A program made the position numbers and the translations under genes. From positions 999 to 64,998 of the forward strand of contig WTFV01000076.1 in the NCBI GenBank assembly GCA_011523845.1: a stretch of 64,000 nucleotides of DNA, written 5' to 3'. Positions 31,961 to 54,422 of the stretch are shown here, piece by piece. The notes under the pieces were generated by a model. It saw only the letters and a program-made list of their open reading frames with translations. It was not told the DNA's origin and did not search any database. Numbering within the stretch: the stretch's first letter is position 1; each line of letters begins with the position of its first letter. The DNA is from Acidobacteriota bacterium (GTDB lineage: Bacteria > Acidobacteriota > Vicinamibacteria > Vicinamibacterales > UBA8438).

Positions 31961-33175
31961 GGTGAGGCCGGAATATACGGGATTGGACCGTGGTTTCGCC
32001 GCGCGTTCCGACTCGCTCCGTGATGCTGCGGCGCGGTTCGGTCCTGGCCCGTGCCGTGCCTTTCCGCCCGCCTTCTCGACGATGGTTTCGCGCGGTGTTC
32101 TTGCCGCTGCGGGCGTTGCCGCCGGGCGCGGGGCCGTGTCGGTCGATCCCGCCGTCAATCGGGGTCTCGTGCTTCTCGGTGGCGGCTGTCGCCGCCTGCG
32201 TTGTCTGCGTCGGAGTTTCTGTCGTCCGTCGGCAGGAACGTCGCCGTCTCGCGGGTTTCGATTCTGCGAGGTTGCCAGCGGTGGATCCGCGTTGCCCCGC
32301 TGGTTTGCCCGCCCGGGACGCACGCCCATACGGTCGTGGGTTCTGCGTTGCGGTAGCGCTTCGCGTGCCGCTTGCAGATGATCTCCCCGGCGAGCGCGAG
32401 CGCCAGGATCTGCAGGTTCGCCAGCCTGCCGTCCTGCAGGCCGGTGCGGAGCACAGGGCCGCTGCGTCCCCGTGGAAGTCGTTCGGGACGATCAGTTGCC
32501 TGGCGGCCTTGCATGTCTGCGTCAGCAGTTCGTTCGCGTCGGTGTTGCTGGTGGTGGTCATCCCCAGCGTTGCGCAACGTCTTCCGTCGAGGAAGCCGTT
32601 CTGTTGCAGCTTCAGGCGGACCGGCCGTCTTGCGGCGGGGTTCTCCGGTGCTCGGGGCTTCACGTCCAGGATGCAATGATATCGGCTGTCATCATTCCGA
32701 GCGCGATGTCCAGCACGATTGTCGATATCACGCAGTCACGCTTGGTGAACTTCTCGACCCAGCGGGTGGTGGCGGCCAGCGGCAGCAGCGCCAGCGGCGA
32801 CGGGTCGTTGGGATGCGCCGCATCGAGCGCCAGACTGAGGATGGCGATGGTGCAGACGGTGCATAGCTGGCAGGCGAATTGGAACATGGGGTCAGCGTCG
32901 GGCGGGTTCGTTTCAGGCATGGGTTCGTGTCGGTCCCAGGTGTTTCCCGGTGATGCGCCTGGTGCTGTCCCGGTGTTTGGAGGCCCGGTCTCTACCTGCC
33001 GTGGTCGTGCGAGCCTCTTCCTCCACTCGACCGGCTCGGCATCGACGCGGTGTCGAGCGGGGAGCGGCTATCGGCTCCTGACCGGCCTGCTTCAAGCTGA
33101 ACCATCCCCGGCGCAAGGGCGGCTCGCTCCTCACTCTCGTCGGCGGCGCGCCTGGCGCAGCCTGGGTGCTTGCTC

Positions 33176-33421
33176 CTACCACTCGGGCGGGTCGTGCTCC
33201 TCGTGGCAGCCGTCGCACAGCGGCGTGACGATCCTCGCGTTCGGGTTCCTGCGCTGCTCCTTGAGCTTCGGCGTCCACCGCGCTCTCGGCACGAAGCGCC
33301 CGCAGTCGGCGCAGCGCATGTGGTCCGTGCGCTCGGCGACTTCGAGCCTGGCCAGGACCTCGTCCCTGTCGGGTTTGCCGCGGGTCCCTTCCGGGACCGC
33401 CGGCGCAGCGTGGCTGCTCAT
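33176..33421 (-). CDS. Small zinc-ribbon-like protein translationally coupled to nrdJ
   Basis: ATGA overlap with the nrdJ stop. The 81-aa product has CADCGRF...CDGCHEEH (two CxxC pairs). Confidence 0.6.
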   Translation of the reverse strand: MSSHAAPAVPEGTRGKPDRDEVLARLEVAERTDHMRCADCGRFVPRARWTPKLKEQRRNPNARIVTPLCDGCHEEHDPPEW

Positions 33422-36144
33422 CCGCAGCCGCTCGTCGCCCCGCAGTTGGGGCAGCTGTAGCAGGCGCCGTTGCGGATCATGATCGTTCCGCAGATGACGC
33501 ACGGCGGCGCGTCGGCGTCGCTGTACGTCGGCCGGGGCGTTGACGGCGCCGCGTCCGGTGTCTCGTTCGCCGGGGCGTGGGCGGCGCCGTTGCCCGCGGC
33601 CGTGCCGGCGGCTGCGGGTTCGGTGGGCCGGTTGACGCCGGCCTGGATCTGCGCCTCGGGCGAGAGGAAGCGGGTCGCCATCCAGCGGAAGACGTAGTCG
33701 ACGATCGACTTGGCGATGCGCACCTTGGGGTTCTTCGTCAGGCCGGCCGGCTCGAACCGCGTGTGGCTGAACTTGTCGACCAGCGTCTGCAGCGGCACGC
33801 CGTACTGCAGGTTGTAGGAGACCGCCTGGGCGAAGGAGTCGGCGAAGCCGGAGATCGTCGAGCCCTCCTTGGACATGACCAGGAACATCTCGCCGGGGCT
33901 GCCGTCCTCGTACAGCCCGATGGTGATGTAGCCCTTGTAGCCGGCGATGTCGAACTTGTGGATGACCGCCTCGCGCTCGTCGGGCAGCTTGCGGCGCACC
34001 GGCCGCGGCTGCGCTCCGGGGCCGCCGAGCCCCGTGTTGAGCGGCTGGGTCCGCTTGCTGCCGTTGCGGTAGACGGAGACGGACTTGGCGCCGCGCCGCC
34101 AGGCGTCCAGGTAGGCTTCCTCGATGTCGTCGACGGTCGCCTCGTTGGGGAGGTTGACGGTCTTCGAGATCGCTCCGGAGATGAACGGCTGGACGGCGCT
34201 GACCATCTTCACGTGGCCCGCGTAGTGGATCGCGCGCGTGCCGTCGGGCGGCTTGTCGGCGCAGTCGAACACCGGCAGGTGGCCGGGGTCGAGCCCGGGT
34301 GCGCCCTCGATGGTCCCGTGCTCGTCGACGTGGCGGACGATGTTCTCGATCTGCTGGGCGTCGTAGCCGAGGCGTTCGAGCGCGGTGGATACCGTCCGGT
34401 TGACGATGCGGATCGTGCCGCCGCCGACCAGGTGCTTGTACTTGACGAGCGCGATGTCGGGCTCGACCCCGGTGGTGTCGCAGTCCATCATGAAGGCGAT
34501 GGTCCCGGTGGGCGCGAGCACGGTCGCCTGCGCGTTGCGGAAGCCGTGGGCCTCTCCGATCGCTATCGCCTCGTCCCATATCCCGCGTATCCGGCGGTGC
34601 TGCTCCTCGGTCAGGTCCGCGCCCCCGAGCGCGTCGCGGTGCTTGCGCATGACGCGCAGGAAGGGCTCGGCGTTGCGCTCGTAGCCGGAGAACGGGCCGC
34701 CGCAGTCGCGGGCGATGCGGGCAGACTGCAGGTAGGCCTCGCCGGTCATCACGGCCGTGATGGCGGCCGCGCAGCGGCGGGCGGCGTCCGAGTCGTAGGG
34801 GATGGCGTGCGACATCAGCAGCGCGCCCAGGTTGGCGTAGCCGAGCCCGAGCGGCCGGTAGGCGTGCGAGTTCTTCTCGATCGCTTCGGTCGGGTAGCTC
34901 GCGTTGTCGACCAGGATCTCCTGGGCGGTGATCATCGTGCGCACGCCGGCGCGGAAAGCGTCGACGTCGAACTCCTCCGGGTTGTCGGGCTTGACGAAGG
35001 CGAGCAGGTTCAGGGACGCCAGGTTGCAGGCCGAGTCGTCGAGGAACATGTACTCCGAACAGGGATTGGACGCGTTGATCCGGGCCGTGTTCGGGCAGGT
35101 GTGCCAGTCGTTGATGGTGGTGTCGAACTGCATTCCCGGGTCGCCGCACTCGTGCGCCCGCTCGGCGATTGCGCGCATCAGGTCGCGGGCGCGGTAGGTG
35201 TCGATGACGCGGCGCTCGCCGGTGACGGCGCGGGTGACCCATTCTGCGTCGTCGACCACCGCGCGCATGAACTGGTCGGGGACGCGGACGCTGTTGTTCG
35301 CGTTCTGGAAGAAGACCGAGGCGTAGGCGGGGCCGGTCAGCGACCCGTCGTAGCCGGCGTCGATCAGCGCCCAGGCCTTGCGCTCCTCCTCGGCCTTGCA
35401 GTTGATGAACTCGAGGACGTCGGGGTGGTCGACGTTGAGGATGCTCATCTTCGCTGCGCGACGCCTCCCTCCTCCCGACTTGATGACGCCGGCGAAGGCG
35501 TCGTAGCCCTTCATGAAGGAGACCGGCCCCGACGGGATGCCGCCGCCGGTGATCGTCTCGTGGCGCGAGCGGATGGGGGAGAGGTTGGTGCCGGTGCCCG
35601 AGCCGTACTTGAACAGCATGCCCTCGGTCTTTGCGAGGGACATGATGGACTCCATCGAGTCCTCGACGCTGAGTATGAAGCACGCACTGCATTGGGGGTC
35701 CTCGTCCCATCCGCAGTTGAACCAGACCGGGCTGTTGAACGCGGCCTTCTGGTGCAGGAGCAGGTAGGTGAGCTCGTCGCCGAACGCCTCGCGGTCCTCG
35801 GGGGTGGCGAAGTAGCCGCCGTTCTCGCCCCATCGGGTGATCGTGTCGGCGACGCGGGAGATGAGCTGGCGGACGCTGTGCTCGCGCTCGTCGGTGCCCG
35901 GGTTGCCGCGGAAGTACTTGTCGGTGATGATGTTGGTGGCCTGCTGGGACCAGGCCTTCGGGACCTCGATGCCCTCCTGTCGGAACACGGACTTGCCGCT
36001 TGTGTTCTCGATCGCGGCGGTGCGGGTTTCCCACTCGACCTTGTCGTAGACGGAGGCTGGCGGCGTGTCCTTCGTGAACGTCCGGGGGAACGTGAGTCCC
36101 GGAGGCTTCGCCGGGCCGTTGGTGCCTGTTCTGGTCTTTGCCAT
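33418..36144 (-). CDS. nrdJ: Class II (adenosylcobalamin-dependent) ribonucleotide reductase
   Basis: 908 aa. It contains ...AFNSPVWFNCG..., CSACFI, SGTGTNLS, NPCSEY and a C-terminal zinc finger CVICGTIMIRNGACYSCPNCG. The order and length are typical of monomeric NrdJ. Confidence 0.93.
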   Translation of the reverse strand: MAKTRTGTNGPAKPPGLTFPRTFTKDTPPASVYDKVEWETRTAAIENTSGKSVFRQEGIEVPKAWSQQATNIITDKYFRGNPGTDEREHSVRQLISRVADTITRWGENGGYFATPEDREAFGDELTYLLLHQKAAFNSPVWFNCGWDEDPQCSACFILSVEDSMESIMSLAKTEGMLFKYGSGTGTNLSPIRSRHETITGGGIPSGPVSFMKGYDAFAGVIKSGGGRRRAAKMSILNVDHPDVLEFINCKAEEERKAWALIDAGYDGSLTGPAYASVFFQNANNSVRVPDQFMRAVVDDAEWVTRAVTGERRVIDTYRARDLMRAIAERAHECGDPGMQFDTTINDWHTCPNTARINASNPCSEYMFLDDSACNLASLNLLAFVKPDNPEEFDVDAFRAGVRTMITAQEILVDNASYPTEAIEKNSHAYRPLGLGYANLGALLMSHAIPYDSDAARRCAAAITAVMTGEAYLQSARIARDCGGPFSGYERNAEPFLRVMRKHRDALGGADLTEEQHRRIRGIWDEAIAIGEAHGFRNAQATVLAPTGTIAFMMDCDTTGVEPDIALVKYKHLVGGGTIRIVNRTVSTALERLGYDAQQIENIVRHVDEHGTIEGAPGLDPGHLPVFDCADKPPDGTRAIHYAGHVKMVSAVQPFISGAISKTVNLPNEATVDDIEEAYLDAWRRGAKSVSVYRNGSKRTQPLNTGLGGPGAQPRPVRRKLPDEREAVIHKFDIAGYKGYITIGLYEDGSPGEMFLVMSKEGSTISGFADSFAQAVSYNLQYGVPLQTLVDKFSHTRFEPAGLTKNPKVRIAKSIVDYVFRWMATRFLSPEAQIQAGVNRPTEPAAAGTAAGNGAAHAPANETPDAAPSTPRPTYSDADAPPCVICGTIMIRNGACYSCPNCGATSGCG

Positions 36145-36525: not shown

Positions 36526-36897
36526 TTACGGGTTTGGTTTCCGGTCCCGGTCGCCGCCGGGCCGCCGGCTGTGGTGCGTGAGGAACTCGAGCTGCGTGTC
36601 GAAGACACTCTTGCGCGCTGCTTCGGGCGCTGCGAGCAGCTGTTTCTGGTGACGGCGCGTCCATCCGGTGTAGCAGGTTTCTCCGCTGTTGTTCAGGACG
36701 ATCGCGGCTCCGGCGCAGGACTGCAGCGTGTCGTCCTCGATCCGCTGGTCGTCGTGCGAGATCGTCGGATGGCAGGGGAACGGCCGCTCGCGGATCGCCT
36801 CGAGCAACTCGGTGGGCGTCCACGGTCCGGTCCAGCCGGGGCAGCTTGCCCGGCGGAACGGGCACTGGGAGCAGGGTTCGGTCAGGTCGAATCGCAT
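36526..36897 (-). CDS. Cys-rich hypothetical protein
   Basis: MRFDLTEPCSQCPFRRASCPGWTGPWT...FPCHPT...LQSCAGAAIVLNN. This is the tail of track ORF 36526..37371. GC3 is high. Confidence 0.7.
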   Translation of the reverse strand: MRFDLTEPCSQCPFRRASCPGWTGPWTPTELLEAIRERPFPCHPTISHDDQRIEDDTLQSCAGAAIVLNNSGETCYTGWTRRHQKQLLAAPEAARKSVFDTQLEFLTHHSRRPGGDRDRKPNP

Positions 36898-36944
36898 TGC
36901 GGTGGGGATGTCTTGTTGCGTGACCGTAGCGGTCCGTGGGCCGT

Positions 36945-37190
36945 TCAGCCCTTCTCGGAGATGATCAGGTTGGTGTCGTCGGTGACCGCGCCGCGGCGCA
37001 CGTTGTCGGCGGCGCTCTCGAGGTTGTGCAGCAGGTCGTGCACGACGGGCTCGTCGTCGTTCTGGACGGAGTCCTTCGCGTGGTCGATGAACTCGTGCAG
37101 CTGTGATGCCGCCACGGGGCCCAGCTCGAGTTCGGCGAAGATCTCGCCGTGCTCGTTGGTGATGGTCACCTGCATCCTGTTCCATTCCAT
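36945..37190 (-). CDS. Small acidic hypothetical protein
   Basis: MEWNRMQVTITNEHGEIFAELELGPVAASQLHEFIDHAKDSVQNDDEP... GGAAGGAG lies 9 nt upstream of ATG 37190. An alternative ATG is at 37199. Confidence 0.65.
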   Translation of the reverse strand: MEWNRMQVTITNEHGEIFAELELGPVAASQLHEFIDHAKDSVQNDDEPVVHDLLHNLESAADNVRRGAVTDDTNLIISEKG

Positions 37191-37269
37191 GTTTTGCATC
37201 TCCTTCCAGTCTGTGGATCGTTTGCGGTTCTGCCGGGATTCGGCGCGGGTGTGCCGGTTTTCTCGTTGT

Positions 37270-37476
37270 GGGTGATCCACGCGCGTGTGGAGGGGACCTC
37301 CGCATCGGCTCGGCGTCGCGTGCCGGTTCAGGGTGATCCACGCAGCGTGTGGAGGGGGCCGTCGAGTGCACCAGATCCGGTGCGCTGGGTGATCCATGCG
37401 CGCGTGGAGGGGATCGGGGCGCCCTTTCCGGTGGAACGGGCTCGATGGGGGTGATCTACCTGTGCGTGGAGGGGAT
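37270..37476. repeat. Four 28-29 bp direct repeats at 61/56/62 bp spacing: a CRISPR-like mini-array or an iteron/operator cluster
   Basis: R1 37270..37297 GGGTGATCCACGCGCGTGTGGAGGGGAC. R2 37331..37359 GGGTGATCCACGCAGCGTGTGGAGGGGGC. R3 37387..37414 GGGTGATCCATGCGCGCGTGGAGGGGAT. R4 37449..37476 GGGTGATCTACCTGTGCGTGGAGGGGAT. No cas gene is in the window. Confidence 0.85.
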
Positions 37477-37502
37477 TGAGGACGCCGCGGACGATGAAGT
37501 GG

Positions 37503-39197
37503 TCAGCCCGTGCCGTCTTTGCCTTCGTCCGGCTCGATCGTGACCTCGATGGGCTTGTCGCCGCGGATGTGGATGATTGCGTCGCGGCCTTGCGGCAGGT
37601 ACGGCGCGACCCAGCGTGCGACTGCGGTGCGCAGGTTCGAGAGCATCGCCTCCTCGGCCGAGGCCAGCACCTCCAGCGCCTTGGCGAACGCCGCCTGTCG
37701 GTAGTCGTCGACCTGTGTCTCATAGCTGTCGGCTTCGGGATGGTCCGATGGGGTGAAGAACGCGTCGTACATCAGGTCCGCCAGTTCTCCGGGCGTGATC
37801 GTGCTGCCGGCGGTGACGAGCACGCTCAGGTCCTCGGCCCAGCCGATGTCGTCGTCGGGGAACGCGACGTCGCCGCGGATCCGCACGCTACGGGTTGCGC
37901 CGTCGCGTCCGACGGTCTCCAGCGTGAATGTGATCCCGTCCGGACGGCCGGTGTTCGGCGGGTTCCTGCGGATGCGCTGCTCCTCGATACGGATCTCCTC
38001 CCCGTCGAGGGCGGCCGTGGTGGCCAGCTTCGTCGCCTTCGGGAGGCCGTCGTACCAGGGATAGCCGTTGTAGCGGGGCTCCTCCGCGCACAGGCGGTGC
38101 GAGCTATTCGCGCGCAGCGCGGCGCGCCAGAGCGCCTGCTGGTCGCAGGGAGGCATGTCGGCCTCGATGACGATGGGTTCGTCGGGCAAAGCCCTGCGGT
38201 CCGGCCGCTCTCCCTTGGTGGAGTACTCGTTGCTGTACTTCGGTCTCCAGGGCGAGAGCTCCGCGCGCGCGATCGGCAGTCGCACATCCTGCGCCAGCGC
38301 ATCCGCGTGCACTTCGGCGGGGACGTCGATTGCCGGGTCCGCCTTCAGCATCCCCCGGTAGATCGCCGTCCGGCAGGCGGTGCGGAGCTGCTCGACGAAG
38401 GGCGTCTCGACGATCTCCCTGCGTGCTGGCAGCACGAGCTCGAGCTCGGCGCAGTCGATCACGTCGGCCCTGACGTGCCAGGTGGACGCCATCGAGCTAA
38501 TGACCGGCAGGCCCGCGTCCTCGACGAGGATGCCGTGGAAGTTGATCTCGGGACGCCTTCCCGGCGTGTACCGCGTCGCGTGAACGCCCAGGCGGATCCC
38601 GCGCCACTCCTCGGTGTGGACCGCGCCGTGCAGGAACTCGATGCGGTCGACGTCCTTTCCGTTGCAGGTGACCGGCAGAGGGAAGTACCGGGCGGCGCAG
38701 TTGACGTTGCCGGTGCTGGCGTTGTCGTCCTCGAAGACGACCTCGGTGCCGAAGGCGAAACTGTCGCGGTCGATCACCTCGACGGCGGCGGTCTGCCGGC
38801 CCAGGAAGTGCTCCGGCGTCAGGTGGACCTGCCACGCGGGCAGTGCCGTTCCGCCGACGGGCTGAGGCCGGGAGCGGATGGTGACCTTCGGGCGGCGGGC
38901 CAGCGAGTAGATTCCCATCCCCGCAGGGTCCTCGCGCCGGGTGGTCTCGAAGTCCCACCCGGTGCGGCCGAAGGCGAGCAGCGCCGCCGGCTCCGTGATC
39001 CCTTCGCCGTTGTCTCGGACGAGGACCTCGCCGCCGGCGATGGTGACGTCGACCCTCGTTGCGCCGGCGCGGCGGGCGTTCTGGAACAGCTCGTTGAGCG
39101 TCTCGACGGTCGTGGCGTTGAAGAAGCGGGTGACGCGGCTGATGGCGTCCTCGTGGACGCGGGTGCGGATCGTTGCGGGAAGCAGCTTCTCGGGCAT
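37503..39197 (-). CDS. GHKL-superfamily (HATPase_c_3 / Hsp90-MORC-like) ATPase with a ~430-aa uncharacterised C-terminal region
   Basis: AGGAGA sits upstream of ATG 39197. TLNELFQNARRAGATRVDVTI is the N box. VLVRDNGEGI is the G1 box. EDPAGMGIYSLA is G2-like. The rest has no motif I recognise. Confidence 0.78.
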   Translation of the reverse strand: MPEKLLPATIRTRVHEDAISRVTRFFNATTVETLNELFQNARRAGATRVDVTIAGGEVLVRDNGEGITEPAALLAFGRTGWDFETTRREDPAGMGIYSLARRPKVTIRSRPQPVGGTALPAWQVHLTPEHFLGRQTAAVEVIDRDSFAFGTEVVFEDDNASTGNVNCAARYFPLPVTCNGKDVDRIEFLHGAVHTEEWRGIRLGVHATRYTPGRRPEINFHGILVEDAGLPVISSMASTWHVRADVIDCAELELVLPARREIVETPFVEQLRTACRTAIYRGMLKADPAIDVPAEVHADALAQDVRLPIARAELSPWRPKYSNEYSTKGERPDRRALPDEPIVIEADMPPCDQQALWRAALRANSSHRLCAEEPRYNGYPWYDGLPKATKLATTAALDGEEIRIEEQRIRRNPPNTGRPDGITFTLETVGRDGATRSVRIRGDVAFPDDDIGWAEDLSVLVTAGSTITPGELADLMYDAFFTPSDHPEADSYETQVDDYRQAAFAKALEVLASAEEAMLSNLRTAVARWVAPYLPQGRDAIIHIRGDKPIEVTIEPDEGKDGTG

Positions 39198-39337
39198 CGT
39201 CTCTCCTGGCGTATCGGGTGTTTTCGGGCCGGTCGGGGGGTGCGGCTCCGGGCGCCACCGGTTACCGGCGGCTCGGTGTTGCGGCGGGGCGTGGTGGCGT
39301 TCGGGCCTGCGGACGGGTCGGTGTGTTCCGGTCTGGT

Positions 39338-39880
39338 TCACTCGGCGTGCTTGTGGATCCGGTGCGGGGCCAGGTCGAAGAACTGGCGGCACAGGCGCTG
39401 CAGCCGTGTGACGTTGGTGCGTTGCCTGCGGTCGTGGCCCAGCGCGGTTACCAGCTCGTCGTGACACGTCGGGTCCAGCACCCGGTAGACCGGCGGCTCG
39501 GTCGCCTCGATCTCGAGGCGGCGGGTCTGCAGATCGCGCAGCGACTCGACGTTGGGGCTCGGTCCGATCGACAGCAGGTCGCGTTCGAGGGTCGCGAAGT
39601 CCGATGCGAGCGCTTCGTGTCTCCGTGTTCCCCCGGCAGGACCGACCACGGCTTCCTGCGCGGCGGCCAGTGTGGCGATGGCTGCCGCGGCCGGCAGCAG
39701 CCATGTCCACTCTGCGTCGGGCGCGGCCGTGGCCGCGGCGATGGTCGCCAGTCCGCCGCAGGTCGTCAGCAGCGTTCCGGTGTCGTGGCATCGGTCGAGG
39801 AAGCGTTGCCGGTGCCGGTGGTACCGCACCGAGCGGCGGGCGGCGAACAGCAGTTCGCCGTAGGCGGTCTCCGTGTCCAT
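39338..39880 (-). CDS. Two-TM protein, tentatively SLATT-like
   Basis: An N-terminal basic helix (ELLFAARRSVRYHRHRQRFLDR). Two adjacent hydrophobic spans (TGTLLTTCGGLATIAAATAA; WTWLLPAAAAIATLAAA). Then a ~90-aa helical tail. This layout matches my recollection of SLATT families, with no HMM confirmation. An alternative start at 39907 overlaps the upstream gene. Confidence 0.5.
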   Translation of the reverse strand: MDTETAYGELLFAARRSVRYHRHRQRFLDRCHDTGTLLTTCGGLATIAAATAAPDAEWTWLLPAAAAIATLAAAQEAVVGPAGGTRRHEALASDFATLERDLLSIGPSPNVESLRDLQTRRLEIEATEPPVYRVLDPTCHDELVTALGHDRRQRTNVTRLQRLCRQFFDLAPHRIHKHAE

Positions 39881-39884
39881 GGCT

Positions 39885-40844
39885 TCAGTCTTCTTCGGCG
39901 TTGCCATCGCCGGCTGTTTCGCGCTCTTGCGTCCTGCGGCTTCGGGGATCCTGTGCCTCGGGCGGTAGGGGCGGGGCCGGCGGTCCGGCGTGGCGGCCCG
40001 GGTGGCGGCGTTCGGCCTCCACGGTGGGGCTCGGGAGGCGTGTGCGGGTCTCCTCGACCAGGCCGATCGGGTCCGGGTGGGTGTCCAGGCAGTTGAGCAG
40101 CCGCTGTCCGGCCGCCGGCAGCGTCCCGCTCAGCGCCATCGCGCCGATGTGGCGGCGCGTGTTGCGCAGGATGTCGGTCGCGGGCGCGCCGTCGTCTCCC
40201 GGCCAGCAGGCGAGCAGGCCCGCCTGGGCCCAGCGCTGGATGTCGTGGGGCTTGTACGTCCAGTTGAGCATCGCTACGTCGGCGTCGTACAGCACCAGGC
40301 CGGTCGTGTGCTCTCCGCGGTGTCCGGCTTCCACCGCCCAGCGGTTGACCTCGATGTGGTCGATGACCGTCATTTCGGTGCGCAGGCAGAGCCACGCTTC
40401 CAGCGCGATGGTCTCGCAGACCATCCTGGCGTCGGCGCTGCGTCGGACCTCGTCCGGGCGGCAGCCGGGGAATCCCCGCGGGTCGATCTCGTCGAGCAGC
40501 TGGACGGCCTGGTCGCTGTAGATCCGCGGCGGCCGGATGAGGACGTACGGGCTGGAGCCGTCGTTCCACATCTTCCACCACCAGGATTCCTCGGCGAGCT
40601 GGCTGGCCGCGTGCATCGCTCCGCGCGCGCGGTGGTGCTCGAGCAGGTTCGCGGCCAGGTTTGCTTCCGAGGCGATCGCGCCCGCGCTGGTCGGCGCCAG
40701 CTGCTCGGCTATGGTGGGGAGTATTCCCACCTTCAGGTCCTTCAGCTCCAGCCATGCGGCCAGCAGGCCCCGCGCCGTCGGGTGCCTGAGTTCGTGCGTG
40801 TGGAACAGCGTCATGGTCGTGGTCGGGGTGTGGCGCTCCGTCAC
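39885..40844 (-). CDS. Hypothetical protein (319 aa), first gene of the SLATT-like/GHKL cassette
   Basis: Clean ORF with high GC3. ...SADARMVCETIALEAWLCLRTEMTVIDHIEV... faintly recalls the PIN-domain core, but the N-terminal acidic residue is not evident. Confidence 0.7.
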   Translation of the reverse strand: MTERHTPTTTMTLFHTHELRHPTARGLLAAWLELKDLKVGILPTIAEQLAPTSAGAIASEANLAANLLEHHRARGAMHAASQLAEESWWWKMWNDGSSPYVLIRPPRIYSDQAVQLLDEIDPRGFPGCRPDEVRRSADARMVCETIALEAWLCLRTEMTVIDHIEVNRWAVEAGHRGEHTTGLVLYDADVAMLNWTYKPHDIQRWAQAGLLACWPGDDGAPATDILRNTRRHIGAMALSGTLPAAGQRLLNCLDTHPDPIGLVEETRTRLPSPTVEAERRHPGRHAGPPAPPLPPEAQDPRSRRTQERETAGDGNAEED

Positions 40845-40899: not shown

Positions 40900-41178
40900 T
40901 TACGACGGGTTCTCTTCCAGCGGCTCGGTCGCCGGTTCGAGCCATGCGTGGAGGATCTGTTCGTGGGTGTGCTTGCCGGAGATCATTCCTGTCTCGCGGG
41001 GGGCGATCTGCCGGCGCTGCTCGTCGGTAAGCCTGATCTGGACGGTGCGCCGGCCGTAGGGCCGCCACTCGTTCTCGTGGACGATCGCGATGTAGGTCGG
41101 CGTGTTGTCGATCAGGACGACGGTCAGCGTGTCGGGGACCAGGGGCGGTTTCGCGGTCGGGCCGGTCTTCTTGTCCAT
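40900..41178 (-). CDS. Hypothetical protein (92 aa)
   Basis: MDKKTGPTAKPPLVPDTLTVVLIDNTPTYIAIVHENEWRPYG... Very high GC3. The ATG overlaps the upstream stop (TGATG). Confidence 0.75.
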   Translation of the reverse strand: MDKKTGPTAKPPLVPDTLTVVLIDNTPTYIAIVHENEWRPYGRRTVQIRLTDEQRRQIAPRETGMISGKHTHEQILHAWLEPATEPLEENPS

Positions 41179-42540: not shown

Positions 42541-43827
42541 TCACTCCTCGAACTGGTCGGCCGGCTTCCAGCGGGGCGGGTTCTCGCCCAGCAACGGGAG
42601 CACCCGCTGCTCGACGTTCGTGCCGCTCGAGCAGAGGCGGACGGCGTGCTCGCGCATTTTCCGCATCATCACGCCGGCCGGGTCGCCGCTGCCCCGGTTC
42701 TTCTCGTCGAGCCACACGAACCCCCAGGGGCGGAGCTGCGCTTCTCTCGCGGTGGCCGCGATCCAGGCGGCCGCCTGCGCCTTGCGCGTGGCGTGGGTGT
42801 CGCGCACGGCGCTCATCCGGGCGGCTATGCCGCGGCCGCTGGCGGCCAGCCGCTCCAGGACCGTCCGGCCGTACTCGTGCACGCGCGCGGCGCGTTCCTC
42901 GTCGAGGATCGCGGTCAGGTCGCCGATTCCGCCGCTCAGTACCGCCTTGAGCACGTGGGTCTCGCGCGCGTAGGCGTCGCGGCCGCGGTGCAGCGTGACG
43001 TACTGCTCGCCCTTGAGCTTGATGCGGTGGCCGGAGGGGAACGAGACCACGTAGCCTTCGTGGTCGGCGTCGAGCCGCCGGGCGGCGGCGACGAAGCGCT
43101 CGCGCTCGTCCCTCGTGCGGGTGCTCGCGACGAAGGTCTCGACCAGGCGCAGGCGCCCGGAGCGCGCGCCCGTGTCCGCGCAGGCGGCCAGGAAGGTCTC
43201 CGCGAGCTGGTCGTGGGACCAGTAGTGGCCGTCGTCGATGCGGCGGACGGCGAGCAGTGTGAGACTCGCATGCTCGTGCCGGACGACGATGCGGTTGTCG
43301 GGCGAGCAGAACTCGAAGAGCGGCGTGCACGGTGCGCCGTCCTGGTCGCAGATCGTCTGCTGCAGGATGGCGGTCATCTGCTTCCGTTCGCCGTCGTCGA
43401 GGTCGCGTTCGAGGAAGTCGACCGCGAGCTGCGCGATGTCGGTCGGCCCGCTCCGTGTGCACCAGGCGATCTCGCCGCTGGCGCGCCGCGCCGGGTAGAC
43501 GAGCGAGCCGTCGATCTTGGCGGTGATCTCGCAGCCGCCGTCCCAGGGGCAGGCGGAGACCGCGGCGCCGGGCTCCTGCCAGTTGAAGAACTTGTGGAAC
43601 GGGCGGGCGGCGACCTCGCCTCCCTCGTTGACGATGAGGCCGCGCATCTCGGAGAAGGGGAACCGGAACTGCTCCGGGTCGCCGGTCACGTAGGCGTAGT
43701 TGAGCGCGCGCAGCCCGCCTCTATGGCGGCAGGAGAAGGTGTCGGCCTCTGCGGCCAGGCGGCAGAGCGTCTCGCCGTCGGGCAGCGGCCGGGGGGCGTA
43801 AGGGATGGCGTCGGCATTCGGGTCCAC
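42541..43827 (-). CDS. ATP-dependent RNA ligase, T4 Rnl1 (RnlA)-like
   Basis: MRGLIVNEGGEVAARPFHKFFNWQE parallels T4 CRGIMFE...ASRPMEKFFNLNE. AKIDGSLV is the motif I lysine. FEFCSPDNRIVV is motif III-like. HEGYVVSF is motif IV. HRIKLKGEQYVTLH is motif V. Confidence 0.8.
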   Translation of the reverse strand: MDPNADAIPYAPRPLPDGETLCRLAAEADTFSCRHRGGLRALNYAYVTGDPEQFRFPFSEMRGLIVNEGGEVAARPFHKFFNWQEPGAAVSACPWDGGCEITAKIDGSLVYPARRASGEIAWCTRSGPTDIAQLAVDFLERDLDDGERKQMTAILQQTICDQDGAPCTPLFEFCSPDNRIVVRHEHASLTLLAVRRIDDGHYWSHDQLAETFLAACADTGARSGRLRLVETFVASTRTRDERERFVAAARRLDADHEGYVVSFPSGHRIKLKGEQYVTLHRGRDAYARETHVLKAVLSGGIGDLTAILDEERAARVHEYGRTVLERLAASGRGIAARMSAVRDTHATRKAQAAAWIAATAREAQLRPWGFVWLDEKNRGSGDPAGVMMRKMREHAVRLCSSGTNVEQRVLPLLGENPPRWKPADQFEE

Positions 43828-44291: not shown

Positions 44292-44581
44292 TCACCGCGG
44301 TTGTTGCGTGCGGACGAGCTTCGGCTTCAGGCCGACGATGGCGGCGATGCGGATGAGGTCGCGCAGCGGTATCTGCGCGCCGCCTTCGAGCTCGCGCTGC
44401 AGTGCGCCGGGGTTGACGCCGGCGCGGGCCGCGATCTCCTCGCGGGTCATGCCGGCCTCGTTCATGCCCTCGACCAGCGCCTCGGTGATGTCGAGGATGA
44501 CGCTCTCCTCGCTGACCAGCTGCTGGTATCCGGGGCCGCGGTCGCGGCGCTCGGCGGGTTGGCCGTGCGGCGGTCTCACGG
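44292..44581 (-). CDS. XRE-like helix-turn-helix protein (antitoxin-like)
   Basis: GTG 44581-44579 overlaps the upstream stop (GTGA). ...MTREEIAARAGVNPGALQRELEGGAQIPLRDLIRIAAIVGLKP is an HTH. Confidence 0.65.
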
Positions 44582-45009: not shown

Positions 45010-45531
45010 TCAGCGGGCCGGGGCGCGTTTCGCTGCGTGCAGCTGGAGTGGCGTTCGCAGGCCGCTCTGCGGCAGGTAGAGCGGGTGGGGCGGGTGCCCC
45101 TCCCTGGTCGCGGCTCCGAGCCGGTAGACGTCGCCGGCGGCGGTCAGCAGCTCCAGCACGCGCCTCGCGCGGGCCTCGCCTGCCTTGCGGGACGGCTTTC
45201 CCCATGCGGCGATGATCAGGTCGGCGCCGCGCGCGGCTTCGGCTATGACGTGGTCGTTGGCGGCGCCGACCGGGTCGTCGAAGTCCTTCAGCCCCTTCGG
45301 GTCGGTGGTCCTGGCCGCGTAGAGGTTGACCATAGTCAGGCGGGTGGCGTCTTCCCTGCGGGCGAAGCCGATCACTCGGCGGCTGGTGGGGTCGTCGCGC
45401 TCGGCGTCGGCCGTCGACGGGTTGAGCCCGCAGACGAGGACGTGCTTTTTCTTCGGGGCGAGCAGGTCGCCCAGGTCGCGCTTCAGCGTCCAGCGGTAGG
45501 TTGCTCTGGTCGAGCCATCCTGGCCTGGCAT
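45010..45531 (-). CDS. DUF1643-like protein
   Basis: ...TYRWTLKRDL...VLVCGLNPSTADAERDDPTSRRVIGFAR...MVNLYAARTTDP...DPVGAANDHVI...ADLIIAAWG...HPPHPLYL follows the DUF1643 pattern as I recall it. An alternative start is at 45582. Confidence 0.75.
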   Translation of the reverse strand: MPGQDGSTRATYRWTLKRDLGDLLAPKKKHVLVCGLNPSTADAERDDPTSRRVIGFARREDATRLTMVNLYAARTTDPKGLKDFDDPVGAANDHVIAEAARGADLIIAAWGKPSRKAGEARARRVLELLTAAGDVYRLGAATREGHPPHPLYLPQSGLRTPLQLHAAKRAPAR

Positions 45532-45617
45532 CTTCGTCGTGTGGCGTCGTTGTGGGCGGCGGACCGTCGCGTTCTTCAGCATCGTCCGGCTCCTTCGCTG
45601 CTGTTGCGTCGCAGCGG

Positions 45618-46040
45618 CTAGGACGGCCGCGTCCGCCCGCTCTCCCAGGCGGCCAGGGTCTTCGGCCCGGCCGCGTAGGGGAAGCTCTGTCCGCGGTAGT
45701 GCTCCATGTCGCCGTACCCGAGGCAGGCGGCCTCGCCAGCGGTGCCGGCGGGCATGAACACTGCCGCGCGCGGGTACTCCAGGTCGCGCCCGATGGCCGC
45801 CGTCGCAACCCCGGCTGCCCACGGCATGCGCGCTGCCTCGGCGATCTCGAGCACGACGGCGTTGCTCTTCGTGATCGCGACGTCGCTGCCTGCCTCGTTC
45901 AGCTTGTCGCACACGGTTTCCACCGCGGCGCGCAGTTCGTCGGGTGCCGGCGGCGGTTCGTCGTCCCGCAGTTCGATCTGCAGAACGTGGCAGCTGGCGT
46001 GATCGGTACCGAGTGTTCCTTCGCGCATCGTCGCTTGCAT
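45618..46040 (-). CDS. Hypothetical protein (140 aa)
   Basis: MQATMREGTLGTDHASCHVLQIELRDDEPPP... This is the tail of track ORF 45618..46199. Good GC3. Confidence 0.6.
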   Translation of the reverse strand: MQATMREGTLGTDHASCHVLQIELRDDEPPPAPDELRAAVETVCDKLNEAGSDVAITKSNAVVLEIAEAARMPWAAGVATAAIGRDLEYPRAAVFMPAGTAGEAACLGYGDMEHYRGQSFPYAAGPKTLAAWESGRTRPS

Positions 46041-46382
46041 GCGGTTCGCTCCCTTCGTTGTCCGCGTTTGCGTTGTTCTCTCGCGGCTGTGGCGGGGCGC
46101 GCGGCCCCGCCCGTTGTGTTCCGACGCTCTCCGCTTTGCTCCCGCCGTTGCGGCGTTCGGCGGCGTTCCGCCGCCGTTCCCTGCGCGTGCAGGGAACACG
46201 AGGCGCGGGTCGGGGGGCCGGCGTGGCCCATCGGTTCATCTCCGTGGTTGGGGAACCTCGCGAACGCGGCCGCCGTCGTGATCGCGCGTCGTCAGTCTCC
46301 TTCCCGTTCGCTGGGGGCGGTGTTGCCGGGCCGTGTTCCTCGACCGCGCGTTTTCCGCGATCGGGCCGTCCGGGTCCTCTGT

Positions 46383-46828
46383 GCTGCGCGTGGCGCATGT
46401 CCGTCAGCGTCCTGACGAGTTCCAGTGTTGTGTTCCGCTCGTCAGGTGTTCACTACGTGCGTTTGCAGTGCGGGCACTGCTCCTCGGCGTTGCTGCGGCC
46501 CGGCCGGAGGTCGATCTCGAGCATTCCTCCGCAGCCGTGCCTGGGGCACTCGAGCTTGATCCCTCGAATCTCGTCGGTCGCGCTTCAGCGTCCAGCGGTA
46601 GGTTGCTCTGGTCGAGCCATCCTGGCCTGGCATCTTCGTCGTTGTGGCGTCGTGCGTGGAATGCTCTCGGGCTGCGTTCCGGTCTTGCTGCTCGGCTTCT
46701 GCGATCCTGGCGAGTCCCTTCGACAGGATCACGAGCGGCAGCCGCACGTACGGGCAGTCGGCGCGCGCCCGCTTGCGGTCGATTTCCTCCTGAAGCGTCT
46801 TGACGGCGGCGCGTTCGTCTCCTGTCAT
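46383..46828 (-). pseudogene. Mosaic decayed duplicate: a copy of the 53-aa gene, a 78-nt copy of the DUF1643 5' end, and a copy of the zinc-ribbon gene with in-frame stops
   Basis: 46383..46575 aligns with 48121..48313, with TGG TGG changed to TAG TGA. 46576..46653 aligns with 45474..45550. 46655..46828 encodes MTGDERAAVKTLQEEIDRKRARADCPYVRLPLVILSKGLARIAEA, matching MTPNERRAVEALEADIDRERARADCPCVRALLVILSKGLANIAEA. Confidence 0.65.
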
Positions 46829-46913
46829 TCTGCGGTTCCTCGTCGCATTCGCTGTTCGGTGTCTTCCAGCGCTTCCACGGTTGCGCGTGAGGCTACCGAG
46901 AGAACCAGCAGCC

Positions 46914-47930
46914 TCATTGCTGCGTCTCGCCTGTGAGCGGTAGCGCCCGCTCGTGCGTGCGGTGCAGCCGCAGCCTTGCGGGCTGGTAGCGTGCCGCTTC
47001 CCATATCTCCCACGGTACCGTGCGGTCGTAGCCGCCGATGACCCAGCGTGCGAAGCCGATCAGTTCCGGGGTGCGCCGGAAGGGCATCGGGTAGGGAAGG
47101 GCTCCGAGCGATCGGATCTGGCGTCTGCGCCAGTCGCGCTCCTGGTGCGTCTCCTGCTTCCAGTACCCGATCAGCATGTAAACGAACAGGTGGTGTGGCC
47201 GCACGCCGGCTTCGATCAGTGCGCCGACGCCGCGGAAGAACCGCTCGGCGTCCTTCGCGTTGTCGAATGCGGTGTAGAGCCGCCGGTGCCGCATCCCGTC
47301 GTCGCGGTAGTCGACGCCGGCTATCGCGGCGGCCGATTCGCGGTCGACCAGCCGCGCGTTGATTCCCTGGTTGAAGGAGACACGGTAGCGCCCTGTGCGC
47401 AGCTCTTCGATTCGTTCGCGCCAGCGAGGCTGACCGAGGAAGTCGTTGTCGAGCAGGAGCACGTGCCGCGGCCATTTTCCGCCGCGCCAGATGTCGGCGA
47501 TGGTCGCCGTCTCGGAGACCGCGCCCTCGGCCTTGGGCACGATGCAGAACGGGCACCGCAGCCGGCATCCCCGCTGGCTGTAGCCGATTGACGACGACCA
47601 GCGCGGGTAGTCGCTGTAGTCGATTGGTCCGTTGGGCTCGATTCCCGCGTCGGCGAGCGTTGTGGTCGTCGACCATCCGGTTCCGCCCAGTACTGCCTGC
47701 GGGTAGGCCTTCCGGACGAGCTCGGCCAGCGGCCGCGTGCGCGTGAAGATTGCGCTTGCATAGACACGCTCGGGCGCCTCCTCGCCGAGCTGGCGTTGGA
47801 TGGCTTGCGCGTTGCCCGCGCGGCGCAGTGTGACCCGGTCGCCCGCCGTCCGGCGCGCGGCGGCTATGCGCATCAGTGCGAGGTTGGGAATCTTCCCGTC
47901 GAGCTGGAGCAACAGCGTCGTTCCGGGCAT
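46914..47930 (-). CDS. Radical SAM enzyme with an N-terminal Rossmann-like (B12-binding-like) segment
   Basis: 338 aa from MPGTTLLLQLDGKIPNLALMRIAAA... It contains GCRLRCPFCIVP, a CxxxCxxC cluster motif. Confidence 0.8.
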   Translation of the reverse strand: MPGTTLLLQLDGKIPNLALMRIAAARRTAGDRVTLRRAGNAQAIQRQLGEEAPERVYASAIFTRTRPLAELVRKAYPQAVLGGTGWSTTTTLADAGIEPNGPIDYSDYPRWSSSIGYSQRGCRLRCPFCIVPKAEGAVSETATIADIWRGGKWPRHVLLLDNDFLGQPRWRERIEELRTGRYRVSFNQGINARLVDRESAAAIAGVDYRDDGMRHRRLYTAFDNAKDAERFFRGVGALIEAGVRPHHLFVYMLIGYWKQETHQERDWRRRQIRSLGALPYPMPFRRTPELIGFARWVIGGYDRTVPWEIWEAARYQPARLRLHRTHERALPLTGETQQ

Positions 47931-48055
47931 CGGTGTCTTGCTCTTCTGCTTCTCCGTGTTAGCTGTACGGTGTGTTCTGCCGGTGGCCGGCCGCCGGCGG
48001 CGGTTTCTTCGAGAGGATGACCAGACTGCGCCCGCATGCAGGGGGTGTGGCAGCG

Positions 48056-48352
48056 CTATTCCACGCTCCCTTCCGGCTCGGGGGGGATCAGTCTGACGAT
48101 CGGGGCGTCCGGGTCGGTGTGCTGCGCGTGCCGCATGTCCGTCAGCGTCCTGACGAGTTCCAGCGTCGTGGTCCACTCGTCAGGTGTCCACCACGTGCGT
48201 TTGCAGCGCGGGTACTGCTCCTCGGCGTTGCTTCGGCCCGGCCGGGGGTCGATCTCGAGCATTCCTCCGCAGCCGTGCCTGGGGCACTCGAGCTCGATGC
48301 CTCGAATCTCGTCGACGGTTGCGATCTGGCGCGTCTCGATGATCATCGTCAT
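48056..48352 (-). CDS. Small Cys-containing hypothetical protein (98 aa)
   Basis: MTMIIETRQIATVDEIRGIELECPRHGCGGMLEIDPRPG...YPRCKRTWWTPDEW... This is the intact paralog of the decayed copy at 46383..46575. Confidence 0.65.
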   Translation of the reverse strand: MTMIIETRQIATVDEIRGIELECPRHGCGGMLEIDPRPGRSNAEEQYPRCKRTWWTPDEWTTTLELVRTLTDMRHAQHTDPDAPIVRLIPPEPEGSVE

Positions 48353-48360
48353 GTCCGGTT

Positions 48361-48522
48361 TTAGGCGGCCCGCCGGGCTTGTCCGCCCGCCTCTGCGATG
48401 TTCGCGAGTCCCTTCGAGAGGATGACGAGCAGCGCCCGCACGCACGGGCAGTCGGCGCGGGCGCGCTCGCGGTCGATGTCGGCCTCCAGCGCCTCGACGG
48501 CCCGTCGTTCGTTCGGAGTCAT
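48361..48522 (-). CDS. Small hypothetical protein (53 aa)
   Basis: MTPNERRAVEALEADIDRERARADCPCVRALLVILSKGLANIAEAGGQARRAA. It is below the track length cut-off. Support comes from its conserved paralog at 46655..46828. Confidence 0.55.
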   Translation of the reverse strand: MTPNERRAVEALEADIDRERARADCPCVRALLVILSKGLANIAEAGGQARRAA

Positions 48523-52915: not shown

Positions 52916-53164
52916 TTACCTGAACAGGTCGTTCGCCCACCTGCGGACCCGTTCGGGACCGAAACAGGCGATTGCCGTCGGCACCATCATGGCGACGACG
53001 ACTGCTCCGACCAGATCGGGCCCCCACGGTTCGGCGCCGGTGACCCAGGAGCTCACGGTGCCGATGACGATGAACATGAGGGTGAAGTGGATCGCGTGCC
53101 GCGCGAGGCAGCGCAGACTCGGCTCGAACATCGGCTGCTCGCTGCTTCGGGTGCTGTCGGTCAT
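52916..53164 (-). CDS. Small two-TM membrane protein
   Basis: ...HFTLMFIVIGTVSSWV...LVGAVVVAMMVPTAIACF... Confidence 0.6.
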   Translation of the reverse strand: MTDSTRSSEQPMFEPSLRCLARHAIHFTLMFIVIGTVSSWVTGAEPWGPDLVGAVVVAMMVPTAIACFGPERVRRWANDLFR

Positions 53165-53366
53165 GGTTCAATCCTCGTTGCCGATGGTCTCGTACTGGTG
53201 CGCAGTGACGACGGTTTCGAACAGGATAGTGCAGTCATCCTCGTCGGCGGGAGCGCTGGAGGAGGGGGGCGTGCGGCAGGCTGTGACGGGTTCCCGCAGG
53301 GGGGCGTGCGGTCGCGAGTGACGTTGTCTTGCTTGGGGAATGCTGGCTTGACTGCACCGTGGTTTT

Positions 53367-54422
53367 TCACCGTCCTCGAGAGGGATTCTTGTTGCGGTCT
53401 TGCCCGTTTGCGGCGCTTGCTGCAGGTGGCGGTGGTGTTGGCGGGTCGGGTGGTTCGAAGAGTCCACGTGTCGGGTCGTCGGGTCGGGCTATATGCGCAA
53501 TGGTTTGTTGGTTGCTCTGTGTCATTGCTTGGCGCGCATCCCGGATCACGTCGCGTGCGCTGATGTTGTGGCATCCGAGGTAGCGGGCGATTCCGAGGCC
53601 GTGGAGGTCTCGTTCGATCTCATTACTTGTCGAGTGATACTCGTTGGTCCGCAACCCGTTGGTTCTTGTTCGTATCGTGATTCGGTCGTGGGATGCCTGG
53701 ATGAGCACTTCTGCGTAGCGGTGCGTCTCCGTCGTGCGTGCGGCCCGTTCGACCAGCTGTTTCGGGTCGATCCAGTTCTCTGCCGATATTCCGGACAGTT
53801 TCGTCTGGGCCTCCTCCTCCTCGATTTTCGCACGGCTATTGTGCCAGAACTCTCTGATCCGGTTGAGTTCAGGTTCCGTGAGCGCATTCAGTGCTTGGTG
53901 CATGCCGGCGTCGCTTCTGATGCGTGCTGCGTGGCAGATGTCGAAGAGGTCCCGTGCTGCAACGTGGTGGTCGATGGCTCGTCGAAACTTTCCGCTGAAG
54001 ATCTGTGCGTTGCTCAGCCTGAGAGTGGTTTGTCGCGCCACTTCAATCGGCTCTTCGTGCCCGGGGAGTTGGCGTCCGCTGCTGAAGATGTCGACCTTGC
54101 CGTTCTTGCCATAGGCGATGCTGAGTTTCTGGTCGGGGGCGTCTACTTGCTGTCGCTTCGTTGCTTGTATGAGCTTGCTCAGGCGCTGGTGTCCTTTGCC
54201 GTGTAGTGCCGCCATGCTGAGGCCCGGTGCGATGAGGATGTCGATGTCGAAGCTGTGCCGGTGACGCCAGTCGGCGGCCAGCGCCGTTGCTCCGCCCAGA
54301 TACCATCTGTCGTGTTCCAGTGTCTTGCACTCTTCGAGCAGGGCGTTGACCAACGTAGTGGCGTGCTGCCAGATCCTGCTGGCGGGTTCGAGAAGCTCTA
54401 CGTGTCTGGTCTTCTTCGTCAT
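53367..54422 (-). CDS. AbiEii/DUF1814-like nucleotidyltransferase (toxin-like)
   Basis: MTKKTRHVELLEP...WYLGGATALAADWRHRHSFDIDILI... ATGA overlap with the upstream gene. GC is visibly lower than in the surroundings. Confidence 0.72.
   Translation of the reverse strand: MTKKTRHVELLEPASRIWQHATTLVNALLEECKTLEHDRWYLGGATALAADWRHRHSFDIDILIAPGLSMAALHGKGHQRLSKLIQATKRQQVDAPDQKLSIAYGKNGKVDIFSSGRQLPGHEEPIEVARQTTLRLSNAQIFSGKFRRAIDHHVAARDLFDICHAARIRSDAGMHQALNALTEPELNRIREFWHNSRAKIEEEEAQTKLSGISAENWIDPKQLVERAARTTETHRYAEVLIQASHDRITIRTRTNGLRTNEYHSTSNEIERDLHGLGIARYLGCHNISARDVIRDARQAMTQSNQQTIAHIARPDDPTRGLFEPPDPPTPPPPAASAANGQDRNKNPSRGR

Follow-up and report, generated by a model that had tools for sequence, protein, structure and literature searches.

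We analysed a stretch of 64,000 nucleotides (nt) from an Acidobacteriota bacterium of the order Vicinamibacterales (assembly GCA_011523845.1, contig WTFV01000076.1, positions 999 to 64,998), referred to below as the window, in which three consecutive genes, here called A, B, and C, had been put forward as a candidate conflict system made up of a protein of no clear family, a SLATT-like membrane protein, and a GHKL ATPase. Comparison with related loci leads us to a different reading, to which we give a probability of roughly 0.55, namely that A, B, and C are three separable modules in the accessory/establishment array of a mobile element. The segment would be a long co-directional array of this kind, belonging to an integrated element in a Vicinamibacterales genome of the sponge-symbiont type. 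The three genes and the spacer that precedes C are as follows (aa, amino acids).

39885-40814, minus strand: gene A, 309 aa (319 aa with a GTG start at 40844), lineage-restricted family with no recognisable fold
39338-39880, minus strand: gene B, 180 aa, two predicted transmembrane segments, phrog_11791, distantly SLATT_1-like
37503-39197, minus strand: gene C, 564 aa, GHL-class ATPase, a backbone gene of the mobile element
39198-39337, minus strand: B-C spacer, with an imperfect palindrome and the ribosome-binding site of C

Eighty genome loci around homologues of C, together with metagenome, plasmid, and viral loci, were searched with hidden Markov models (HMMs) for A, B, and C, and about 150 related loci were compared in total. 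The island had been described as mobile-looking, and its gene order bears this out; collinearity with at least 10 other Vicinamibacterales loci begins at about 33 kb of the window and extends at least as far as 62 kb. All three genes occur together in only four related Vicinamibacterales elements; C is found alone or with a ParB gene at about 85 loci, B alone at about 39, and A alone at 4. Approximately 70 genome loci of other phyla, three inspected plasmids, and 12 viral contigs carry C with neither A nor B, and B was found with neither A nor C in the phage BcepMu, a Klebsiella plasmid, 32 IMG/VR contigs, and three metagenome contexts (L089-L091). The 32 viral loci were examined for A and C only; neither gene stood beside B in any of them (0/32), and half of these copies of B (16/32) lay within 1.5 kb of a contig end. 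The original prediction was to be refuted if the three genes were not syntenic in other genomes; synteny of A, B, and C proved limited to the four related elements. No defence model of PADLOC-DB v2 matched any of the three proteins (0 matches at E ≤ 1).

The position between A and C is occupied by B in just four distinct elements, namely the window, its closest syntenic locus (L006), L097, and L098/L099. It is absent from 8 of the 12 distinct Vicinamibacterales elements that carry C, and A is kept upstream of C in seven of those eight. In L098/L099 (6237-6790), a 16-nt deletion seen in two samples removes the conserved EPPVYRVLD region of B; in L097 (5228-5800), a 2-nt insertion shifts its reading frame, a difference that could be an assembly error, as coverage is only 4x. 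A and C are intact in both cases, and because these independent indels stand beside intact A and C, B appears to have decayed repeatedly. B is therefore independent of A and C, and it is dispensable.

The family of C, by comparison, is widespread, with at least 544 genome loci and up to 5 copies per assembly. Its hosts are Vicinamibacterales, Dehalococcoidia, Alphaproteobacteria, Gammaproteobacteria/Rariloculaceae, and unclassified metagenome-assembled genomes of sponge type, and it is present on 95 PLSDB plasmids, 26 of them typed as conjugative and 17 as mobilizable. At approximately 63 loci from other phyla, C is preceded on its own strand, at a distance of 74 to 670 bp, by the gene for a ParB_N protein of 690 to 860 aa, and downstream of this ParB-like gene many such loci carry a 166-aa gene, DUF6573, and RadC. 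The ParB-like partner has a Noc/Spo0J-like N terminus, an intact IAGARRL (GxRR) box, and a helix-turn-helix (HTH). On the conjugative plasmid pNL1 the gene order is strawberry-notch, ParB, C, ArdC; on the Agrobacterium plasmid p2 it is PAPS reductase, ParB, antirestriction gene, DUF932, C. Neighbourhoods of C in other mobile elements likewise contain ArdC, an annotated antirestriction protein, RadC, DUF6573, SSB, and PAPS reductase.

Since a ParB-like gene stands directly before C in most other mobile elements and the other neighbours are of the anti-restriction or leading-region type, we propose that C, as the conserved core of the array, would act on DNA or nucleoprotein during establishment or maintenance of the element and not as a defence sensor. 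One account describes a clustering of anti-defence genes in the leading regions of plasmids (PMC11541004). The nearest described protein to the usual partner of C is HerB/YfjB of plasmid F, a ParB-like CTP clamp encoded in the leading region, which acts in establishment and, once conjugation has taken place, reprograms the recipient, and for which no ATPase (GHL) partner is described (PMC13370423). Like HerB, the partner of C is a large ParB-like protein with a CTP box and an HTH, encoded among early or anti-restriction genes of conjugative elements with no adjacent ParA; this likeness of the C-linked ParB proteins to HerB is one of class. Unlike these arrangements, C in the window has no adjoining ParB-like gene. 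Our literature search on ParB and GHKL pairs turned up no description specific to this pairing.

In the Acidobacterial lineage the slot of the ParB-like gene is instead occupied by A. All 38 homologues of A are on contigs of the Acidobacteriota/Vicinamibacterales type, where A is usually directly upstream of C and where further paralogues of A occur in the same elements. A had been described as having no clear family, and this holds, with no match in Pfam, NCBIfam, PHROG, or PADLOC and no PDB sequence match in a profile search. The AlphaFold2 model of A is confident (pLDDT 87.4, pTM 0.82), and a Foldseek search of it against PDB and BFVD returned nothing at E < 1 (best E 1.3) and no recognisable PIN or DNA-binding fold. 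The faint PIN core that had been suspected in A found no HMM or structural support; none of 34 family members matches any Pfam model, PIN included. What likeness there is to VapC-like PIN proteins consists of the M(I/L)LVDTSEL start of distant A paralogues, which resembles the first PIN motif, the toxin-antitoxin-like layout of those paralogues, the invariant acidic residues E134, D152, and D179 of the A family, and a predicted core of alternating beta and alpha elements; however, A of the window has a His in place of the first Asp, and we rejected PIN identity as a resemblance at the level of motifs.

The distant paralogues just mentioned (L101-L104, 5771-6897) are 298 aa long, begin M[IL]LVDTSEL, and follow a 77-aa, highly charged ORF (open reading frame) with a 4-nt overlap. 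They adjoin smpB and sit among HicA toxins and transposases, with no GHL ATPase nearby, in a layout like that of toxin-antitoxin pairs. We also considered whether the 92-aa gene upstream of A in the window is related to this 77-aa putative antitoxin, and rejected the idea because the two show no similarity.

The position of A raises the alternative that A and C form a two-gene module in Vicinamibacterales, in which A would replace ParB as an adaptor that binds DNA or another target, possibly the palindromic repeats described below, and B would be optional. At nearly all Vicinamibacterales loci A immediately precedes C, with 42 to 60 bp between them if B is absent; this is the position of ParB elsewhere, and at L011, the only Vicinamibacteraceae locus that lacks A, a ParB-like gene stands beside C. 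Repeat arrays follow C in the window, in L015, and in L006, but in L008, L009, and L012 they are 6 to 9 kb from C. The adjacency of A and C could also reflect shared descent of closely related elements; paralogues of A occur elsewhere in the same elements, the distant ones in toxin-antitoxin-like pairs without C; and the model of A has no DNA-binding fold that can be recognised. We consider a dedicated A and C pair a possible but unlikely explanation. If the three genes are separable modules, A was probably acquired on its own, as a selfish or accessory gene.

The repeats that bear on this question adjoin the cassette, as had been noted, with four copies of a 25- to 27-nt repeat at 37270-37481. 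The arrays and single copies found are listed here.

37270-37481, minus strand: four copies of CCCTCCACRCGCGYRTGGATCACCC at a spacing of about 60 bp, directly 3' of C, with a near-palindrome in each
62114-62138: a single repeat copy in the window
L015, 11707-12086: repeat array in a related element
L008, 17313-17663: repeat array in a related element
L009, 20390-20762: repeat array in a related element
L012, 18373-18585: repeat array in a related element

Arrays here and in related elements consist of 4 to 7 direct copies of about 25 nt with a period of about 60 bp and the consensus CCCTCC(A/G)CGCGCGCG(T/C)GGATCACCC, each with a near-palindrome; all are found on the strand that codes for the gene array, and the repeat is also written CCCTCCACGCGCGCGTGGATCACCC. 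The distance between array and C in L008, L009, and L012 weakens the idea that the repeats are a site specific to C. We regard the arrays as a signature of this family of Vicinamibacterales elements, and they look like iterons, centromeres, or operators.

The three ORFs themselves are well supported. In a window of about 70% G+C, the G+C fraction at third codon positions (GC3) is 0.90 for A, 0.85 for B, and 0.83 for the long ORF containing C, which equals the third-position bias of real genes here, and the searches recovered at least 430 full-length homologues of C, 67 of B, and 38 of A. The ORF first proposed for A (39885 to 40844) exists, but the internal ATG at 40814 is a likelier start than the GTG at 40844 because all database homologues begin MTLFHT or MMLFHT. 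B has the same length as a database homologue that is 99% identical to it. The start of C at 39197 has an AGGAGA ribosome-binding site 4 nt upstream (39202-39207), which is also conserved in L006. As had been stated, A and B adjoin, with 4 nt between the stop of A and the start of B, and the gap between B and C is 140 nt. No terminator-like site was predicted on the minus (coding) strand between the genes, so co-transcription of A, B, and C is plausible; predicted sigma-70 promoters and intrinsic terminators showed no excess over the shuffled expectation, and none were on the coding strand. The imperfect palindrome reported in the B-C spacer is present, but its frequency is that of chance and it is not conserved in L006: equally good palindromes number 69 in the window (1.1 per kb) versus 30 to 51 in simulated sequences, and 7 of them fall within 37.4-41 kb. 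We therefore rejected it as an operator.

This compact arrangement speaks for the original prediction, in which C would sense or switch, the SLATT-like B would be a pore-forming suicide effector, and A would be a PIN-like nuclease or adaptor. The genes share a strand, A and B are 4 nt apart with no predicted terminators, the A-B-C order is found in four related elements with roughly parallel divergence, B has SLATT_1-like signals, and GHKL ATPases do occur in defence systems. Yet C is conserved (36-75% identity) at about 80 loci that lack B, where it is paired with ParB instead; B is missing from two thirds of the Acidobacterial elements (8/12) and pseudogenised in two more, in which A and C persist, and in phages and other elements it is overwhelmingly solitary. 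PIN support for A is absent, as is a PADLOC match, and the adjoining genes encode no enzyme of nucleotide signalling such as SMODS or TIR. With C and B mostly apart and B lost or decayed beside intact A and C, a single three-gene conflict system is very improbable.

B is a full-length match to phrog_11791 (E = 4.6e-29; residues 11-182 of a 189-aa ORF versus profile positions 5-171 of 173), the family that includes gp19 of phage BcepMu, which is of the same size and with which tblastn gives 38% identity over the C-terminal half. The layout ascribed to B on first reading, a basic N-terminal helix followed by two adjacent transmembrane spans and a helical tail as in SLATT effectors, is there, but the single sequence stays below the curated SLATT thresholds: B scores 13.9 bits against SLATT_1 in Pfam (cut-off 26.3) and 16.1 in NCBIfam (cut-off 41). 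Within its family SLATT_1 is the commonest weak Pfam match (9 of 40 members, then 18 of 96, at E ≤ 1; best E 2.1e-5), and SLATT_4, SLATT_fungal, and S_4TM are also seen occasionally. Judged by its sequence, B appears to be a distant SLATT_1-like two-transmembrane protein that falls below the formal thresholds. Its hydrophobic segments are adjacent, at about 34-54 and 58-82, with 19-residue Kyte-Doolittle means of 1.3 and 1.6 (family average, 1.6-2.0). The family conserves a basic N-terminal helix, LLFxxRRSVRYHxxR, and a C-terminal domain of about 100 aa with the motif RRLxIEAxEPPxxRVLDxxCHNE.

This conserved C-terminal domain sets B apart from SLATT effectors, as does its occurrence as a solitary gene that is neither fused nor adjacent to SMODS, SLOG, or TIR genes in the contexts examined; no nucleotide-signalling gene of these or similar types lies beside B in the window, in BcepMu, in L089-L091, or on the Klebsiella plasmid. 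A profile search of 1.84 billion representatives recovered 2,549 clusters at E ≤ 1e-3, and the best 150 clusters listed are nearly all stand-alone proteins of about 150 to 250 aa. A PDB sequence search gave no match that would supply a solved SLATT-like structure. In BcepMu the homologue of B is flanked by the immunity region on one side and, just downstream, by the holin-endolysin cassette on the other, whereas B of the window lies between A and C; the literature searched held no specific account of the function of gp19. In our preferred reading B is an optional, self-contained "moron" whose own cytoplasmic C-terminal domain plausibly serves in sensing.

Two further observations touch on B. 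The Pfam family Rv2743c, a membrane partner in the mycobacterial PspA operon, matches 13 of 96 members of the B family weakly (best E 0.0047), a resemblance that may be compositional only. The only SLOG-type domain of the window is 19 kb from B, in a polyvalent protein of 1102 aa (58745-62053, minus strand) that combines a DarT1-associated NADAR domain, three YAcAr (YspA-type SLOG) repeats, and DUF4326. Such polyvalent proteins are typical of the counter-defence arsenals of phages and conjugative elements (PMC5512222), and this one is a candidate counter-defence protein of the element.

C belongs to the GHKL/GHL superfamily as an ATPase of the GHL class (MutL/Hsp90/GyrB-like), and its ATP-binding motifs are intact. 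The Bergerat-fold boxes first noticed in its sequence are genuine: motifs I (ExxxN), II (DxGxG), III (the Gly-rich ATP lid), and IV (GT) are all present and align to the MutL motifs. In alignments of 22 and 83 homologues, the motif residues E36, N40, D62, G64, G66, G93, and G95 are invariant, G150-T151 of motif IV is invariant or nearly so, and R259 in the second domain (LELVLPARKE) is invariant. Matches of the single sequence to HMMs are sub-threshold and limited to residues 32-97 (HATPase_c, HATPase_c_3, and MutL models), with 22.5 bits against HATPase_c of Pfam (cut-off 26.4) and 16 bits against HATPase_c_3 (cut-off 25), to which some other family members also give weak matches. The family profile, in turn, finds the N-terminal domain of MutL (E = 1.2e-5) and MORC2 (E = 2e-3). 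The AlphaFold2 model (pLDDT 87.5, pTM 0.80) has low confidence only at 77-93, the expected ATP lid, and Foldseek matched it to TRAP1/Hsp90, the MutL LN40 fragment, and the ATPase domain of phage T6 topoisomerase II (E from 4e-11 to 1e-9), with target-normalised TM-scores of 0.51 for MutL LN40 and 0.46 for the T6 domain.

In the protein, a Bergerat ATP-binding domain and then a transducer-like one are followed by about 270 C-terminal aa with the family-specific motifs GYxWYD and ADSYETQ, for which no sequence match was found. C thus shares with the GHL ATPases (the MutL 40-kDa fragment, Hsp90/TRAP1, GyrB, and phage topoisomerase II) motifs I-IV, a transducer-like second domain, and a conserved N-terminal segment before motif I, as seen in those that dimerise upon binding ATP. 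From this fold class, the intact catalytic residues, and the N-terminal segment, C would most likely dimerise through its N-terminal ATP-binding domain as an ATP-operated clamp. It differs from these ATPases in lacking the MutL C-terminal domain, a recognised Toprim motif or topoisomerase cleavage partner, and a match to the HSP90 HMM, in the C-terminal 270 residues without a known relative, and in being encoded on mobile elements beside ParB-like genes. C is not MutL proper: its TIGR00585 score is 19 bits (cut-off 180), from a match limited to residues 34-78, and no profile matches past residue ~132, with no sign of a MutL C-terminal dimerisation or endonuclease domain.

Prokaryotic MORC/paraMORC ATPases, which have been tied to restriction-modification and defence (PMC8011034) and for which PMC5512222 cites Iyer, Abhiman and Aravind (2008), are the other group to be considered. 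Like them, C has a GHKL ATPase domain, a transducer-like domain (to judge from the Foldseek matches), a setting of genetic conflict, and a weak MORC2 match; unlike them, it is neither fused nor adjacent to a nuclease, a methylase, or a response-regulator-like protein, its typical partner being the ParB-like protein. Its HATPase_c_3 match is below threshold and its neighbours are ParB-like, ArdC, RadC, and DUF6573 genes, or A and B, so we do not place C in this group. Existing annotation of the family, including that in RefSeq, is generic ("ATP-binding protein") or, wrongly, "sensor histidine kinase."

A further alternative, to which we attach little credence, is that C is an Hsp90/HtpG-like chaperone that folds or stabilises proteins of the element and is not a DNA-acting clamp: its best whole-length Foldseek matches are TRAP1/Hsp90 (670-690 aligned columns, TM-score 0.40-0.45) and it has a three-part N-terminal, middle, and C-terminal layout with a helical C terminus, but these TM-scores are modest, its sequence-profile matches are to MutL and MORC and not to Hsp90, no HSP90 Pfam match was obtained, and its conserved partner is a DNA-binding ParB-like protein.

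Some related elements carry a second, far more divergent C-like ORF (HMM E about 1e-38), 5 to 8 kb downstream of the main C; no such second copy was detected in the window. The divergent ORFs are as follows.

L008, 15267-16502: divergent C-like ORF
L009, 18372-19616: divergent C-like ORF
L013, 17425-18669: divergent C-like ORF

Several points weigh against reading A, B, and C as separable modules of an establishment array. The 4-nt spacing of A and B suggests co-translation. The A-B-C order is kept in two diverged clades (identities of 59-77% for C, 58-75% for B, and 41-85% for A), and because of this persistence B is probably ancestral at its position between A and C, which is compatible with some functional link. 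On a Leptolyngbya plasmid, a copy of C sits among NACHT/NB-ARC and restriction-modification genes, a setting like that of a defence island. That C works as a clamp and serves in establishment we infer from its fold and neighbourhood, and its C-terminal 270 aa have no recognised function. The part of B is similarly inferred: it is most likely a membrane-perturbing factor for exclusion, abortive infection, or lysis, but this membrane activity is predicted and its hydrophobic segments are only moderately hydrophobic. Finally, no capsid or other structural, terminase, relaxase, or type IV secretion genes were identified among the scanned ORFs of the window, and the element may be either a prophage or an integrative and conjugative element.

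On the reading that we prefer, in which the three genes are separable, the cassette fails as a defence candidate, so that no effort need go into cloning the wrong unit. The domain superfamilies involved are already known; the families of A, B, and C are all without a described function. What the comparison exposes is a widespread, uncharacterised GHL ATPase tightly paired with large leading-region-type ParB-like proteins on conjugative plasmids and integrated elements of several phyla, a very large family of SLATT-like proteins with two transmembrane segments that are solitary and that phages and prophages carry as cargo, and, in A, a protein with a confident fold prediction for which the searched libraries gave no structural relative. 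We consider the ParB-GHL ATPase pairing the most interesting lead; an ATP-driven partner of a ParB-like protein could matter for plasmid establishment, given the host reprogramming by HerB (PMC13370423). As a speculation that we hold to be rather unlikely, the C family could be the ATP-driven half of an undescribed, widespread two-component DNA-handling machine for establishment, anti-defence, or segregation, with a CTP-type ParB-like clamp, encoded upstream, as the other half in most plasmids and integrative and conjugative elements, or A in Vicinamibacterales, and with B as an optional membrane effector or anchor in the lineage of the window.

The gene order that the window shares with related loci runs ThyX, a DUF1643-like gene (45010-45700), a 130-aa gene, an HTH gene, variable genes, and a gene for a 147-aa Zn-ribbon protein, and continues with a 92-aa gene, A, B where present, C, small genes, a class II ribonucleotide reductase (RNR), a 93-aa gene, and UvrD. 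The following genes of the window belong to or lie within this stretch.

33418-36144, minus strand: class II RNR, conserved backbone, downstream of C
36643-36897, minus strand: small backbone gene of about 85-91 aa, downstream of C
36945-37397, minus strand: small backbone gene of 150 aa, downstream of C
40900-41178, minus strand: 92-aa gene, GC3 0.90, with 70-79% identical homologues upstream of A in 6 related loci and no family match
42541-43827, minus strand: T4 Rnl1-like RNA ligase
44295-44516, minus strand: HTH protein
45010-45700, minus strand: gene matching genes of L006 and L100 called DUF1643
46914-48176, minus strand: radical SAM protein
48544-50163, minus strand: ThyX

The two small genes at 36643-37397 have homologues downstream of C in 6 to 7 related loci, at 51-91% identity. 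The window contains two radical-SAM genes, and one related element encodes a repressor of the CI/LexA type. No tRNA genes that could mark an integration site were found in the window, and the DNA of 36.5-41.5 kb showed no similarity to sequenced phages. Relaxase and NikA in L003 were considered as a sign of a conjugative element and rejected, as comparison with L004 and L005 indicates a separate insertion that replaces the 5' part of A; A in L003 is truncated to 186-194 aa.

In related loci the RNR, 93-aa, and UvrD genes are contiguous (e.g., L004, 18442-20960). In the window, the 93-aa gene (32663-32917) and UvrD (15457-17487) are approximately 15 kb apart, with genes for a Calx-beta/fn3 protein, a hybrid kinase, an aspartyl protease, and a symporter between them; this separation reflects either an insertion or a rearrangement. 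The hybrid kinase, a histidine kinase (23372-25756, plus strand; GAF-PAS-HisKA-HATPase-REC-Trans_reg_C), shares 60% identity over 782 aa with a kinase of L087 (14382-16727), which follows RadC after about 440 bp and closes a C-bearing array with the order ParB, C, DUF6573, RadC that is typical of non-Acidobacterial loci. The two kinases may be horizontally transferred cargo.

Dispersed direct repeats at 45474-48512 flank the radical-SAM gene at 46914-48176 and comprise a 197-nt pair of 93% identity (46380/48118), a 149-nt pair of 77% identity (46670/48364), and an exact 67-nt pair (45474/46576). An insert of low G+C content (0.61-0.62) is present at 53000-55000 within the 70%-G+C element, and an ORF at 53367-54665 (minus strand) has, as seen by eye only, a motif resembling those of AbiEii/nucleotidyltransferase toxins, LGGATALAADWRHRHSFDIDIL. 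Outside the collinear stretch, an ORF at 3179-4231 (minus strand), beside a gene for a TonB-dependent receptor, combines CarboxypepD_reg and Plug domains with an MbtH-like match (E = 2e-17), which is an unusual mix.

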